Shown here: positions 41,658-47,406 of the stretch, piece after piece
Layout: every line of letters begins with the position of its first letter
Numbering within the stretch: the first letter of the stretch is position 1
Source: Vicinamibacteria bacterium
Lineage (GTDB): Bacteria; Acidobacteriota; Vicinamibacteria; Marinacidobacterales; Marinacidobacteraceae
Length of the DNA stretch: 64,000 nucleotides
Assembly: GCA_963555995.3 (NCBI GenBank)
Contig: OY821641.1
Coordinates: 2,144,001 to 2,208,000, forward strand
Direction of reading: 5' to 3'
Translations under genes and position numbers: made by a program
Notes under the pieces: model-generated
Databases searched by the model: none
What the model was told of the DNA's origin: nothing
What the model saw: only the letters and a program-made list of their open reading frames with translations

Positions 41658-43448
41658 TCAGGGACGAGCCGTGGGAACGAGGGTCACCTCGTGGCGTTCC
41701 CCGTCGCGGAGGAACACCACGGTGAGCGGCTCGCCGATGCGGGCGGCCTCCAGCGCGTTCATGTAGTCGTAGATGTTCAGGACCGGCGTTCCCGCGAACT
41801 CGACGATGACGTCGCCCTTCCGGAGCCCCGCCTCTTCGGCCGGCCCGCCCGCCATGACCCCGCCGAGCAGCAGTCCCTCGATCTCGGTGGCGTACTCGGG
41901 GATCGTCCCGGTGTAGGCGCGCAGCGAGACGCGCGAGGTCGCGGTCTCCGGGGCGCGCTCCACCTCGACGAACTCGGGGACCGGATCGCTCTCGGCCACC
42001 CGGCGGGCGACGAGGCCCGTGAAGCGGGCGATCCGGGCGAGGCCCTCGTAGTTCAGCTTGTCGGCGGTGTCGGACGGCCGGTGGTAGTCGGGGTGCGTCC
42101 CGGTGAAGAGGTTGAGGGTGGGCACGCTCTCGCTGTTGAACGCCGACGAGTCGGTGGGGAGGTAGGGGTCGTCGGAGAGCGCGAGGTCGAATCCCCCCGG
42201 CACGTTCGCCCGCTCGACGATGCCCGGCCAGACGCTCGACGAGCCCATCGCCTGGACGGTCAGCCGGTTCTCCTCGAGCCGCCCCACCATGTCGAGGTTG
42301 ATGTAGGCCGCGAGCCGGTCCGGCCGGATGTCGTCCCGGACGAACGCGCGGGAACCGAGGAGGCCTGATTCCTCCCCGGACCAGAAGCCGACCAGCACCG
42401 GCCGGGCGAGGGGAGCGTCGGCAACGGTGCGCGCCAGCGCGAGCACCGCGGCGGTCCCCGACGCGTTGTCGTCGGCGCCGGGATGGACCGCCGGGGGAGC
42501 GTGGGGGTTCAGCGAGCCGCCGCCCCCCATCCCCAGGTGGTCGTAGTGGGCGCCCACCGCGACGTAGGGCGGATCGAGGCTGCCGTCCGCCGCCGGGAGG
42601 ATCCCGACCACGTTCGCGCCGCTGGTGGGCGTCCGCTCGAGGTCCACGGCCAGGGTGGCGAACCCGGGCAGCGGGAAGGACCCGGCGTCCACCTCGCCCG
42701 CATCGAGCGATCGCTGCACCTCGGCGAGGGAGACCCCGGTCCCCGCGAAGAGCCGGTCGCCGGCCGCCCCGTCAATCGAGACGGCGAGGATGCCCTGGCT
42801 GCCCGGCGCCGCAATGTCGAAGGCATCGGGAGCCAGTTCCCCGGCCCCTTCGGACCCGGGACCGGTGATCACCACCATCCCGGCCGCCCCCTGGTCCCGC
42901 GCCGCTGACGCCTTGGACCGGAAGTCCGCGTGACGGTTCAGCACCGACCGCGTCTCGTCCTCCACATCGTCCGGGAAGTAGCGGAGGACGACCACCACCT
43001 TGTCGCGGACCTCGTGGCCGGCGTAGCTGTCGTAGCGGACCCCGGCGCTCTCCGGAACCCGGATGCCGTAGCCGGCGAAATAGAGCTCTCCCCGCACCTC
43101 CCCGGTTTCCGAGAACGCGAACGCCTTCACCTGGTCGCTTCCGAAGCGCTTGTGGCCCCCGGCCCGCAGCGAGGACCCCCGGTCCTCCACTCCGGCTATG
43201 AAACGGAAGGGGATCCCGAGACCGTCCCGGCCGGGGAGGGGCCGGGCGCCGGCCGCCTCCAGCTCGGAAATCAGGTAGCGCCGCGCGGTCGCGGCTCCCG
43301 GCGTGCCCACCGCGCGCCCCTCGGTGCCCGGTCCGGTGAGCGCGAGGACATCGTCACGGAGTTCCTCGGGAGTCTGGGCCGCGGCGGGGAGCGCCAGCAA
43401 CAGCGCGAGCGAACAACTGACCCCGGTGAGGGTCTGGCGGCGGTTCAT
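41658..43448 (-). CDS. M28 aminopeptidase with PA and PDZ domains, exported
   Basis: Signal peptide, GAHYDHLG, GADDNASG, SGEESGLLGS, NLDMVGR, YHRPSD, C-terminal PDZ (GGPAEEAGL). Confidence 0.9.
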   Translation of the reverse strand: MNRRQTLTGVSCSLALLLALPAAAQTPEELRDDVLALTGPGTEGRAVGTPGAATARRYLISELEAAGARPLPGRDGLGIPFRFIAGVEDRGSSLRAGGHKRFGSDQVKAFAFSETGEVRGELYFAGYGIRVPESAGVRYDSYAGHEVRDKVVVVLRYFPDDVEDETRSVLNRHADFRSKASAARDQGAAGMVVITGPGSEGAGELAPDAFDIAAPGSQGILAVSIDGAAGDRLFAGTGVSLAEVQRSLDAGEVDAGSFPLPGFATLAVDLERTPTSGANVVGILPAADGSLDPPYVAVGAHYDHLGMGGGGSLNPHAPPAVHPGADDNASGTAAVLALARTVADAPLARPVLVGFWSGEESGLLGSRAFVRDDIRPDRLAAYINLDMVGRLEENRLTVQAMGSSSVWPGIVERANVPGGFDLALSDDPYLPTDSSAFNSESVPTLNLFTGTHPDYHRPSDTADKLNYEGLARIARFTGLVARRVAESDPVPEFVEVERAPETATSRVSLRAYTGTIPEYATEIEGLLLGGVMAGGPAEEAGLRKGDVIVEFAGTPVLNIYDYMNALEAARIGEPLTVVFLRDGERHEVTLVPTARP

Positions 43449-44596
43449 CGGAAGGTCTCCGGGTGCCGGTTCCGGGATGGCGCGGAGCGAAGCGCGGCAA
43501 GCGCGGCCTCGTGATCCCAGTCGGCGAGGTAGATCTGGCCGCCTTCCCCGCCGTGGCGGGTGGAGGTCCAGGCGAGGCCCTCCCCGTCCGGGGTGGGGAC
43601 CGGCAGCCCGTCGAAGCCGTCCGTGGTGGTGATCCGGACCGGCTCCTTCTCGCCGCCGACATCCACCATGTACACCTCGAAGTTGCTGAATCCCAGCTTG
43701 TTCGAGGCGAACAGGACGTACTCGAGGGACGGATGGACATACGGCGCCCAGCTCATGGCCCTGAAGTCGGTAAGCTGGCGCTGGTCGCTCCCGTCCGGGT
43801 TCATGGACCAGACGTCCGCCACCAGCCCGTCTTCCGAGAAGCGCCGCCAGATGATCCGCGACCCGTCGGGGAAGTAGAACGGGCCGCCGTCGTAGCCGGG
43901 CACGTGGGTCAACCGCCGCTGCTCGCTGCCGTCGGCGCGCATGGTCCAGATCTCGCCGAAGTACGACGGATCTATTTCGGCGAGACGGGTCTCCCGCTCC
44001 GTGAGTTCGTCCTCGAACATGCCCCGCATCGAGGTGAAGACGACCGACGCGCCGTCCGGCGACCAGCTCCCCTCGGCGTCGTAGCCCTGCGCGTCGGTGA
44101 GGCGAACGAGTTCGCCGTCCGAGCGCCGTTCCACGAAGACGTCCATGTGGGAGTCGTAATCCCACTCGTAGCGGCGCTCCTGGCCGCTCTCCCGGAACGC
44201 GATCTCTTCCCGCTGCAGCTCGAGCGAACGCGGGTCGAGGTGCGTCGAGGCGAACAGGATGTCCCCGTTCTTCCCCGAGATGAACGCGCAGGTGGTCTTG
44301 CCGCGCCCCGGAGACACGCGGCGCACGTCCCCCGTCTCCATGGACAGCAGGTAGATCTGGAAGAAGGGGTTCCCCGGCTCCCGCTCCGACTGGAAGACCA
44401 TCTCCCGCCCGTCCGGGGAGAAGTACCCCTCCCCCGCGCGCTTTCCCTCCACGGTCAGGCGGCGGATGCGGCTCAGGAACCGCGACTCGTCCTCGGCCCC
44501 CTGCGTCGCAAGAGCCGGAGCCAACAGACCCCCGCCCAGCGCAATTGGAAGTACGAACACGAGGCGGCCGGATACGCGCCGCAACGACTGGAACAT
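43445..44596 (-). CDS. TolB-like PD40 beta-propeller protein
   Basis: Repeats GEGYFSPDG, GYDAEGSWSPDG, GYDGGPFYFPDG, GFDGLPVPTPDG; signal peptide. Confidence 0.85.
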   Translation of the reverse strand: MFQSLRRVSGRLVFVLPIALGGGLLAPALATQGAEDESRFLSRIRRLTVEGKRAGEGYFSPDGREMVFQSEREPGNPFFQIYLLSMETGDVRRVSPGRGKTTCAFISGKNGDILFASTHLDPRSLELQREEIAFRESGQERRYEWDYDSHMDVFVERRSDGELVRLTDAQGYDAEGSWSPDGASVVFTSMRGMFEDELTERETRLAEIDPSYFGEIWTMRADGSEQRRLTHVPGYDGGPFYFPDGSRIIWRRFSEDGLVADVWSMNPDGSDQRQLTDFRAMSWAPYVHPSLEYVLFASNKLGFSNFEVYMVDVGGEKEPVRITTTDGFDGLPVPTPDGEGLAWTSTRHGGEGGQIYLADWDHEAALAALRSAPSRNRHPETFR

Positions 44597-44664
44597 GGGG
44601 AAACGAGGGCTGCGAACCGGCCGGTCGGTAACCGCTGATTGTACCCCGGAGGGTGGCGGCTGCC

Positions 44665-44714
44665 GCCGGGACCGCCGGTCTCCAGACCGGCATCGACCGC
44701 CGAGAGGCGGTCGA
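44665..44714 (+). repeat. REP variant plus accessory hairpin
   Basis: GGGACCGCCGGTCTCCAGACCGGCA then TCGACCGCC-GAGA-GGCGGTCGA. Confidence 0.65.
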
Positions 44715-44886
44715 AACCACACCTGCACCGAACCCCACAGCAGAAACCGGAGGGGAAGCCTCTGTTCCGGCGACGGGGTTGCGGCTTGGAGCCCCATCAA
44801 GGGGACAGGGACGGAATCCTCCACCGCCTCGGCGCTCCAGTGTCGCAACGTCCACCCGGCCCCGGTATGTTTCGAGACCGTCCCTC

Positions 44887-45708
44887 ATGAATCTGCCCAA
44901 CCCGTTTGTCAAACTTCGGGAACTCAGCCGGATACGGAGGGACATCGTCCGCGATCGGAAGAGGCTACGCACCCAGATCCAGGCCATCGTCGGCGCTGCC
45001 GGGTTTCGGATCGGCAGTGCGCTTCCGGATCCTCTTGACCCGGATGGACTCCACATTCTCGAAGGTCTCGCCGCCGACACGCCGACGCACATCCTCCTCA
45101 AGGGCCTTTCTTCGTACGTCGGACACGACGAAGGAGAACTCCGGGACGCCCTGACGGCTCGCCTGGATGACACCGGCCGCTTTCTTCTGAGCGACCAGCT
45201 ACGGGCGTGGAAGTCGGCGATCCGCAGAGTCGCGACCTACGACGCTCGCATCGCCAAAGGCCTGTCCGAATTCGACGAGCCGCTCGACCTCCTGACGACG
45301 ATTCCCGGAATCAGCCGCGAGGCGGCGTGCGCCATCTTGCTGGAACTGGGACCGGACATCCGAACCTTCGAGTCCAGCAGTCAGTGCGCGGCGTTTGCGG
45401 GCCTTGCCCCGGGCAGGAGAGGTGGCGGGAACCACGAGGAGCGTGGCGCCGGTCGCCGGCGTAGCCCCCCCTTGCGCGGGATCCTGATCGAATGCGCCGA
45501 GGCCGCCACCCTTGCGAGGGGGACCGAGTTCCGGCGCTACTACGAGACCGATCGGGATCGGAAAGGCCACCAGCACGCTCTGGTCGCCACCGCCAACAAG
45601 CTGGTCCGTGTCATCTACGGGGTTCTCAGCAACCGCGCCCCCTACCGCGATGCCCGGAGCGGGGAGATGTCCATCCGGACAGATTCGGAGCCTCGCAGCG
45701 TCCCATAG
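44887..45708 (+). CDS. IS110-family recombinase derivative lacking the N-terminal RuvC/DEDD domain and the catalytic Ser
   Basis: LRELSRIRR coiled-coil start, LLTTIPGIS...AILLELG.DI..F, AFAGLAP, ALVATANKL...IY..L....Y; no DEDD motifs upstream. Confidence 0.8.
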   Translation: MNLPNPFVKLRELSRIRRDIVRDRKRLRTQIQAIVGAAGFRIGSALPDPLDPDGLHILEGLAADTPTHILLKGLSSYVGHDEGELRDALTARLDDTGRFLLSDQLRAWKSAIRRVATYDARIAKGLSEFDEPLDLLTTIPGISREAACAILLELGPDIRTFESSSQCAAFAGLAPGRRGGGNHEERGAGRRRSPPLRGILIECAEAATLARGTEFRRYYETDRDRKGHQHALVATANKLVRVIYGVLSNRAPYRDARSGEMSIRTDSEPRSVP

Positions 45709-45759
45709 CCGGCGTTCCTCGGCGCTCCAAGGCCCGCGGGGACTCCCTCCGAGCTCGGA

Positions 45760-47406
45760 CTACTCCCCCGCGTACGCCGGGCCACGGAGCGCCCGGCCGG
45801 GGAGCGCGCCGGTGTACTCGCCCTCGTCCACCACCGGGGTCCCGTTCACCAGGACGTAGCGCATGCCGACGGAGTAGTGGAACGGATCTTCGAAGGTGGC
45901 CACCCCGCGGATCATCTCCGGATCGAAGACCGCGAGGTCGGCGAAGTGCCCTGCGGCGAGCGTGCCCCGCTCCTCGAGTCCCAGGATCTCCGCGGGAAGC
46001 CCGCTCAGCTTGCGGATCGCCTCCTCCCAGGTGAGGAGGCCCTCCTCGCGGACGTAGGTGCCGAGGAGGCGGGGAACCGTCCCGAGATGCCGGGGATGGA
46101 CGAGCGGGGGCAGGTTCTCGGAGTCGAGATCCATCGTGCCGCCGTCGGTCCCGCCGGCCACGTAGGGCTGGGCCAGCACCTGCCGGAGCGTGTCCTCCTC
46201 GTTGTTCCAGTCAATGACGATGCCGCGGCCCTCCTGCTCGAGGACCACGTCCATGAAGGCCTCCTCGGCGGGTTGGCTGCGCATCTCCGCCACTTCCTCG
46301 ACCAGCTTGCCGTTGATCTCCGGATCGTCCACCCCGAGCCGGACGCGGTGCCAGCCGATGTTCGCGAGGTAGGGCGGCTCGGTGACGAAGTCGCCGGCGA
46401 TGCGCTCGCGCATTGCCGGATCGCGCAGCCGTTCGAGCATCGCCTCGACGCCGCCTTCCTGCGCCCAGGCGGGGATGTAGCTGCGGAGGCCGGTGATGCC
46501 CCAGGTGGAGGTGTAGGAATCGCCGGTCACCTGCATCCCCCGGAGCCGGGCTTCATCAATGAGGCCGAGGAAGGTGTCCGCCTCGGTGGAAGACGTCGAG
46601 TTCAGGTGGAAGAAGTGGACCGGCGCGCCCGCCCGTTCGCCGATGAGGAGGGCCTCGGTGATCGCCTCCGGATCGGTCCCGTTCATGGTGCGGGCGTGGT
46701 TCGCGAAGATGCCGCCCGCCGCGGCCGCCTCGGCGACGATCGCCGCGAGTTCCTCCGTGGACATGTAGATGTTGGGCACGTAGCTCATGCCGGCGGAGAC
46801 CCCGAACGCACCCTCGGCCATGGCGTCCCGCACCAGCCCCAGCATCTGCTCGAGTTCCTCGCCGGTGGGCTCCCGGTCCTCATAGCCCATGACGTAGGCC
46901 CGGACCGAGCCGGAGCCGACGTAGGACGCCACGTTGATGGCGATGCCGGTTTCGTCCAGATAGTCGAGGAATCCGCCCAGGGTTTCCCACTTCCCTTCCA
47001 GTTCCTCGGGCAGGCTGCCCTCGATCCTTCCGCCGCGCGGGCCCATCGAAGTGGTCTCTCCGTAGACCTCGGTGGTGAGCCCCTGGAACGCGAACGAAGG
47101 CCCCTGGCCGCCGTCGAGCAGGCGTCGGAGCTCGGAATGGCTGTGCATGTCGACAAAACCGGGCGCCACGTAGAGGCCGGTGGCATCAATCGTTCGTTCC
47201 GCGCTGCCGCCGACGTCGCCGATCGCGGCGATGCGGTCTCCCTTGATCGCCAGATCGGCGACGACTCCCGGTGCTCCGGTCCCGTCGAAAACGGTGCCGC
47301 TTTCGATGATCAGGTCGTAATCCGGCGGCCCGCAGCCGAAGAGGCAAACCGCCAGCACCAGTCCGAGAAGGGCAACGCGTCTTGGCGCGCCGTGCTGGAA
47401 CATCAT
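45760..47406 (-). CDS. N-acyl-D-amino-acid deacylase family lipoprotein
   Basis: Lipobox LFGC, GTVFDGTG, APGFVDMHSHS, GSVRAYVMG, HPRHLGT, ADLAVFDP. Confidence 0.9.
   Translation of the reverse strand: MMFQHGAPRRVALLGLVLAVCLFGCGPPDYDLIIESGTVFDGTGAPGVVADLAIKGDRIAAIGDVGGSAERTIDATGLYVAPGFVDMHSHSELRRLLDGGQGPSFAFQGLTTEVYGETTSMGPRGGRIEGSLPEELEGKWETLGGFLDYLDETGIAINVASYVGSGSVRAYVMGYEDREPTGEELEQMLGLVRDAMAEGAFGVSAGMSYVPNIYMSTEELAAIVAEAAAAGGIFANHARTMNGTDPEAITEALLIGERAGAPVHFFHLNSTSSTEADTFLGLIDEARLRGMQVTGDSYTSTWGITGLRSYIPAWAQEGGVEAMLERLRDPAMRERIAGDFVTEPPYLANIGWHRVRLGVDDPEINGKLVEEVAEMRSQPAEEAFMDVVLEQEGRGIVIDWNNEEDTLRQVLAQPYVAGGTDGGTMDLDSENLPPLVHPRHLGTVPRLLGTYVREEGLLTWEEAIRKLSGLPAEILGLEERGTLAAGHFADLAVFDPEMIRGVATFEDPFHYSVGMRYVLVNGTPVVDEGEYTGALPGRALRGPAYAGE

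Follow-up and report, generated by a model that had tools for sequence, protein, structure and literature searches.

What remains for a recombinase to do once both of its catalytic parts are gone? This question is raised by a gene at 44887-45708 (plus strand) of the window, the 64,000-nucleotide stretch of DNA analysed here. It is flanked on the left by a divergent gene for a PD40 (TolB-like) beta-propeller protein (43445-44596, minus strand) and on the right by a convergent gene for an Amidohydro_3 amidohydrolase (45760-47406, minus strand; start codon provisional), both assigned by Pfam and synteny. The reading frame runs from the ATG at 44887 to the TAG at 45706-45708 and encodes, as the initial annotation had it, 273 amino acids without interruption. 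Pfam, AlphaFold2, Foldseek, orthologues and dN/dS values mark the product, P0001, as an IS110 derivative composed of a coiled coil and a Nop-like Tnp domain, with neither the DEDD domain nor the catalytic serine.

Transposase_20 (PF02371) is matched by residues 134-220 (45286-45546) with an E value of 1.2e-15, whereas DEDD_Tnp_IS110 stays below threshold: 27 positions at the end of the profile (123-149 of 155) match residues 8-34 with 14.9 bits against a cut-off of 29. Just this presence and absence had been expected. NF033542 gave 123.7, below its cut-off of 140, and NF052498 gave 28.4 bits against a cut-off of 100, a score outside the Tas clade. The AlphaFold2 model (mean pLDDT 83) consists of a coiled coil and a helical Tnp domain and is weak at residues 177-189 (pLDDT under 50) and 258-273. 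Model and column counts place the coiled-coil helices at residues 5-37 (helix 1, 44899-44997) and 95-125 (helix 2, 45169-45261, the predicted dimer surface). Foldseek ranked IS621 and ISCro4 on top, followed by TasH, TasR, Nop56/58 and Prp31; the best matches by sequence and structure were 8wt6, 8wt9 and 9t56. PADLOC assigned none of its families to three proteins, and the ESM Atlas gave generic Transposase_20 clusters alone. P0001 and its RuvC-less relatives are called short forms in the following.

The eroded catalytic loop spans residues 176-193 (45412-45465), as delimited by the IS621 alignment, column counts and pLDDT. It reads GLAPGRRGGG and has no catalytic serine, exactly as noted before: G180 (45424-45426) aligns with S241 of IS621 (numbering counted by hand), and the 15 short forms tested all have Gly, Asn or Arg in this column; it is Ser in 100% of 72 full-length relatives by construction, since these were picked for having the Ser loop. 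The accompanying claim that the rest of the Tnp domain is intact holds for the fold, but not for the DNA wedge, a basic patch and the C terminus. At the wedge (45487-45501; IS621 alignment and column counts), Y264, M265 and M268 of IS621, whose roles are described in PMC11208158, are replaced by I201, E202 and E205 (numbering again counted by hand). E205 occurs in 15 of 15 short forms and in one of the 72 full-length relatives. In the basic patch, H230 has taken a position at which none of the 72 has His and 62 have K or R, and the C-terminal extension of the parent has given way to a low-confidence tail. Altogether, P47, D51, E205, E214, H228 and H230 are new invariant residues of the short forms (P47 is seen in none and D51 in one of the 72), and the GHQH motif (45565-45576) is, by column counts, specific to the family. 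The arginines of helix 1 (R11, R15, R17, R18, R24, R26 and R28) are retained; P0001 has T29-Q30 in place of the N-R motif found in active enzymes.

Overall invariance is alike in seven short representatives (123/254) and four parents (122/254). The catalytic loop falls from 13/18 invariant positions in the parents to 3/18 in the short forms, while helix 2 rises from 8/31 to 18/31. At 54 columns the full-length relatives are conserved (in at least 70% of the 72); the short forms have retained 36 of these and lost 18. Residues of the predicted interface are not enriched in invariance (11/23 compared with 123/254 overall). Selection has abandoned the catalytic loop and, relative to the parents, is strongest on dimer helix 2; the constraint is structured, with loop and tail variable and core and helices not.

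A homology search with P0001 returned 31 matches, seven of which (P0002-P0008) contain PF02371 only and are 65-91% identical at 95-100% query cover. With the most distant member as query, the identical seven were found and then full-length enzymes at 48-49% identity; no DEDD-bearing protein exceeded 49% identity to either query. The seven clusters comprise 35 sequences, and the 27 members examined individually have a common start methionine or a start called close by; P0056 is a short sequence, and P0058 is apparently 5'-frameshifted. A profile search of 1.84 billion representatives gave one representative for the whole family, scans of genomes and metagenomes found close relatives at three loci only (L026, L027 and L029), and two queries found no relative in viral_contigs. 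A FastTree built from 15 short and 72 full-length proteins, with no Tas sequences among them, places the short forms in a single clade (support 100, stem 0.59) that lies within the IS110s of this genus. The closest parents, at 46-47% identity to P0001, belong to a REP-targeting IS110 group of this genus (L004-L006, L018) that is still present in three of its genomes (G001, G004, G008). The short forms have a single origin from the REP-targeting IS110 of the genus: RuvC domain and catalytic serine were lost once, recently and inside one genus, and the short forms have lost both catalytic parts, the IS ends and the parent-type bridge RNA.

The gene was found in three of the 16 genomes of the genus, namely the genome of the window (G000), G012 and G014; it was not found in any other of 28 genomes from the family, nor in a class-level sample of 401. 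A metagenome locus (L029) also has it, at 83% identity. At all four loci it lies between the same PD40 and amidohydrolase genes, so the syntenic orthologues proposed as a check do exist. In each carrier genome it is present once and at this locus, not as a mobile IS110 would be, and the end motifs of the parent were not found when its flanks were read by eye. A single copy at a conserved locus, as expected for a domesticated transposase, is thereby seen in G000, G012, G014 and L029, with P0004 and P0006-P0008 outside this comparison. In G003, G006, G010, G011, G013 and G015 the equivalent site (44645-45760 of the window) contains nothing but short REP-like DNA, and in G001, G004 and G008 it has other cargo. 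Contig ends interrupt the site in G002 and G007, its flanks lie apart in G009, and G005 has no flank match. The cargo, judged by eye, is what we take to be a PIN-type toxin-antitoxin pair in G004 (L051), an FKBP-type isomerase gene in G008 (L050) and a transporter cluster in G001 (L054).

The carriers do not group on either flank tree, and L029 falls with G002 or G008, outside a nine-genome clade that includes G000, G012 and G014. Between G012 and G014, four-fold sites differ at 4 of 161 positions in the gene, whereas the flanks have 87 differences at 521 such sites (p 2e-7). Because these sites are so much closer in the gene than in the flanks, they point to one recent interspecies transfer; in the three other pairs tested, dS was not significantly lower than in the flanks (p 0.06-0.22). 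The gene is an accessory gene at a variable hotspot, apparently exchanged horizontally. An exact 13-nt direct repeat that resembles a reversed REP half flanks it (44827-44839 and 45717-45729); the upstream copy is also found in G012 and G014 and is absent from L029. In G013, a genome with 10% contamination, the flanking region occurs twice (C4:20472-39258 and C4:3790168-3808954), and the amidohydrolase gene is split by a long insert in the duplicated region.

Is the gene under selection? Pairwise dN/dS (NG86) among the four loci is 0.24-0.34, well below 1, with six of six bootstrap intervals below 1; flanking genes have 0.08-0.18 by the same method. A codon model (MGK) gave an omega of 0.277 with kappa 3.0 and lnL -1783.5, and omega = 1, with lnL -1812.8 as the best of four kappa values, was rejected (2 delta lnL 58.5). 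Truncation and derived residues are common to the four genes, so the selection acted after catalysis had been lost, and purifying selection after loss of mobility is what characterises a domesticated transposase. We conclude that the gene is, as far as sequence comparison can tell, a domesticated fragment of an IS110 recombinase under purifying selection. The exaptation suggested in the initial annotation is thereby supported, by the syntenic orthologues, by the low dN/dS and by a truncation and Ser loss common to members down to 65% identity. Contigs of RNA run X1, from a G014-like strain, cover 44807-45091 and 45157-45807 at a depth like that of the flanks; they carry no strand or level and may stem from DNA carry-over. 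A scan for consensus promoters and terminators found none, and no Shine-Dalgarno sequence was seen by eye.

The DNA upstream of the gene had been considered as a structured guide RNA. The motifs described there are all present at the coordinates given, but they are REP-derived or lineage-specific and fold no better than shuffled sequence. The GAGA-loop hairpin lies in a REP copy outside the gene (44665-44717, recognised by its BLAST copies), as the annotation itself had cautioned: about 640 BLAST matches elsewhere in G000 cover 44660-44700, and with up to three mismatches each the 25-nt REP core has 579 copies in G000 and the GAGA hairpin itself 11. The AACCCC/GGGGTT stem belongs to a single-copy hairpin (44725-44785) that BLAST and locus comparison find at the G000 locus only; cut out after the fact it reaches a z of -2.28, and in G012, G014 and L029 it is absent and different REP-like DNA is found. 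The AGGGACGG/CCGTCCCT stem is present at three of the four loci and broken in L029. Common to the four loci is a stretch of about 90 nt (44797-44886, plus strand, by alignment), whose last 45 nt before the ATG are identical to G000 at 44, 43 and 37 of 45 positions in the three other loci. These 90 nt are no better than shuffles (z +1.04, +0.42, -0.66 and -0.62 at the four loci), the whole upstream 200 nt has a z of -1.24 against shuffles, and Rfam gave no match to the upstream DNA below an E value of 0.59. An upstream guide RNA, being REP-derived or unique to G000 and having neither a folding excess nor an Rfam match, was therefore rejected. A putative -10 box, TATGTT at 44866-44871 (TATGGT in L029), was seen by eye and could serve in a promoter. 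For the traces of eroded RuvC sequence suspected upstream, a multiple alignment with DEDD DNA appeared collinear, but anchored scores against the DEDD-coding DNA of the parent were no better than those of 3000 random genome windows (p 0.12-0.85).

A guide could also be supplied in trans, as bridge RNA functions in trans according to PMC11208160. For the bridge RNA of the parent, 11 elements of the parent type supplied the 5' non-coding ends on which a covariance model, R1, was built. These ends indeed act like bridge RNAs, their loops matching the element's own flank and right end and co-varying with them. R1 detects the parents in three genomes (G001, G004, G008). It also picks up mini-elements of about 290 bp that have no transposase, four of them in G008, and a partial copy in G002; in G000, G012 and G014 it finds nothing (149 candidates were scored in each of G012 and G014), and at the four gene loci there is no significant match, so that the bridge RNA of an IS110 is not seen there. 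Unfiltered nhmmer over all of G000 reached a best E value of 2.3 with the whole RNA and of 1.1 and 1.6 with its halves, while control mini-elements gave 3e-7 to 0.02. The initial claim of an RNA-guided binder with the upstream DNA as its guide thus finds no support, as no parent-like bridge RNA is detected in cis or in G000. Nor did the search in cis and with the parent model yield a cognate guide RNA with a genomic target, as would be known from a TldR-like system.

What, then, is under selection? The alternative named at the outset, an ordinary decaying IS, here a functionless remnant in slow decay under weak constraint, draws on a dN/dS above that of the flanking genes, on the absence of the gene from most genomes of the genus, on the short P0056 and the apparently frameshifted P0058, and on the lack of a consensus promoter in the scan and of a Shine-Dalgarno sequence by eye. 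It is not borne out by the conserved locus, by a dN/dS below 1 and by a truncation shared throughout a family that reaches 65% identity with the same start; omega = 1 is rejected on branches younger than this truncation, constraint separates loop and tail from core and helices, and the frame was kept in all four lineages in only 31 of 20000 neutral simulations (hand-set branch lengths, substitutions only). The selection tests appear to have largely refuted decay already, and we regard it as improbable. An RNA-guided, nuclease-free binder of DNA or RNA, comparable to TldR or TasA and served by a guide that is encoded elsewhere and has diverged beyond the parent bridge RNA, is less improbable but still unlikely. 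The coiled coil and the Tnp fold, which bind the bridge-RNA loops in IS621, are retained together with two thirds of the conserved columns (36/54), and solo bridge-RNA mini-elements occur in the genus. Against such a role stand the lack of conserved structured DNA or an array in cis, the empty searches of G000, G012 and G014 with a model that does find parents and mini-elements, nhmmer E values far above those of the control mini-elements, an acidic position 205 and the loss of the N-R motif and of K/R230. A recent bacterial repeat of the transition from IS110 to a solo Nop protein, with a diverged guide in trans or a hijacked bridge RNA of an invader that would block targets, is just as doubtful; if it were true, the short forms would be the IS110 counterpart of TldR.

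A new role without a guide and unrelated to IS110, as a homodimeric factor that binds nucleic acid (such as REP hairpins or transcripts) or protein, strikes us as possible though rather unlikely. It fits the continued selection in lineages that have neither the parent IS nor a parent-type bridge RNA, the new invariant residues, unlike those of nearly all 72 full-length relatives, the retained helix-1 arginines and Tnp core and the abundance of one REP core in G000 (579 copies). No candidate ligand or conserved neighbour was found, however, and such a role would be dispensable, as a search of the 16 genomes of the genus left 13 without the gene and its site is empty in at least six. The reading that we tentatively prefer, at less than even odds, is that P0001 would be a dead subunit acting in trans to inhibit the parent IS110, via coiled-coil heterodimers or by uptake of bridge RNA; a dominant-negative IS110 repressor, also proposed in the initial annotation, is thereby our leading candidate mechanism.

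The active site of IS110 enzymes is composite, formed by the RuvC of one subunit and the Ser loop of another, as laid out in PMC11208158. Because of this, a subunit without RuvC and Ser would poison the tetramer: the coiled coil of P0001 is predicted to pair with the parent transposase, each dead subunit would remove one RuvC and one Ser, and the acidic wedge residue could in addition hinder DNA opening. In addition, bridge RNA that comes in might be sequestered by homodimers of P0001. On this reading we would be dealing with an accessory defence gene of patchy distribution, which recombination exchanges at a hotspot flanked by REPs. Indeed, an antiparallel coiled-coil heterodimer of P0001 and the parent was predicted with a score of 0.76 (best control 0.00), which may reflect likeness, as dimers of IS621 have been solved. 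The runs agreed in at least 94% of contacts, with a partner pLDDT of at least 81. Of 157 complexes with solved structures, 116 attained this mark, as did 2 of 215 mismatched pairs, and close cousins of true partners pass as well (10 of 12 colicin pairs).

Parent IS or mini-elements occur in none of the three carrier genomes (G000, G012, G014) and in four of 13 non-carriers. The difference falls short of significance (p about 0.39, by hand), and both clade and target abundance are confounders: carriers have 19, 33 and 97 REP target sites, and G001, G004 and G008, the hosts of the full parent, have 708-796. The parent was never seen together with the gene in a carrier genome. Six close non-carriers are also free of the parent, so the gene is not needed for a parent-free genome, and the persistence of other IS110 groups in G014 (10 DEDD matches) and G000 (two) speaks against a general suppression of IS110. 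The long stem branch (0.59) and the new invariant residues go beyond what poisoning would require, which hints at a new function; the residues argue that more than poisoning may be under selection.

Truncated transposases that inhibit the full-length enzyme in trans via mixed oligomers are known from Tn5 (Inh) and from the P element (KP), where they are encoded by the element itself or by its deletion copies. P0001, a putative inhibitor, differs from these in that its gene belongs to the host and evolves on its own, with about 46% identity to the parent. With the IS110 bridge recombinases (IS621, ISCro4 and the parents) it shares the coiled coil and the Tnp domain, but it lacks the DEDD domain, the catalytic serine, the IS ends and the bridge RNA and is found in single copy at a fixed locus. 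TIGR-TasA, as described in PMC12045711, is likewise a nuclease-free coiled coil with a Nop-like domain, although TasH and TasR are weaker structure matches; P0001 differs in being chromosomal, in having no TIGR array and in its recent derivation from IS110 rather than from the Tas clade. At the three loci examined for a TIGR array none was found, the flanks consisting of REPs and host genes. TldR, too, is a catalytically dead protein domesticated from an RNA-guided transposon protein, but its fold is unrelated, and TldRs have identifiable guide RNAs, of which none was found here (10.1101/2023.11.30.569447). Both losses of P0001 recur in Prp31 and Nop5: Prp31 is without the N-terminal domain, and both are without the catalytic-serine element (10.1101/2024.06.21.599552). 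Those are ancient RNP subunits of archaea and eukaryotes, whereas P0001 stems from a recent event in one bacterial genus, with a living parent.

IS110 has been proposed as the ancestor of Nop5/Prp31 or as a descendant of TasA; those events are ancient, that of P0001 is recent. Since the active parent, its bridge RNA, the REP target and the mini-elements are all still available, the first role of a stripped IS110 becomes directly testable. If P0001 inhibits its parent, bridge recombinases, now under development for genome editing, would have an off-switch provided by nature. The locus also illustrates that PF02371-only proteins can hide selected genes. IS110 surveys tend to drop such proteins as truncated (10.64898/2026.08.14.744561), and mixed communities of full and truncated IS110-like proteins are mentioned in PMC12045711; further literature for comparison is PMC13626964 and 10.64898/2026.10.21.760802. 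In the literature searched, which comprised few subscription papers, no paper described a domesticated IS110 gene of bacteria that lacks RuvC.

Some observations on the IS110 elements of the genus may be added. G000 itself contains a distant IS110 group in two copies, the second 5'-truncated (C1:2027416-2028504 and C1:2408202-2409044; L022-L025). Its Tnp domain reads RGHNHA where P0001 has KGHQHA and the parents have K or R at the second His; this is possibly a coincidence. The mini-elements (G008 C1:2462622, 3378227, 1526587 and 2553961, L076 and L078-L080; G002 C108:1-130, L066) consist of the ends of the parent IS110 and the bridge RNA and are inserted in REPs; the guides match the flanking REP as well as the right end of the mini-element itself. 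Similar to them are the solo ssr9 copies of ISPpu9 (PMC12288879). The bridge-RNA family, of about 210 nt, is conserved at the 5' ends of L004, L005, L006, L017, L018 and L036-L044, and its guides vary with the target: L005 and L006 target REP, L004 and L017 the end of another repeat element, and L018 a different site. The 15-nt REP target of the parent, counted with at most one mismatch, ranges from 9 copies in G011 to 1595 in G013 across the 16 genomes, indicating a fast turnover of REPs.
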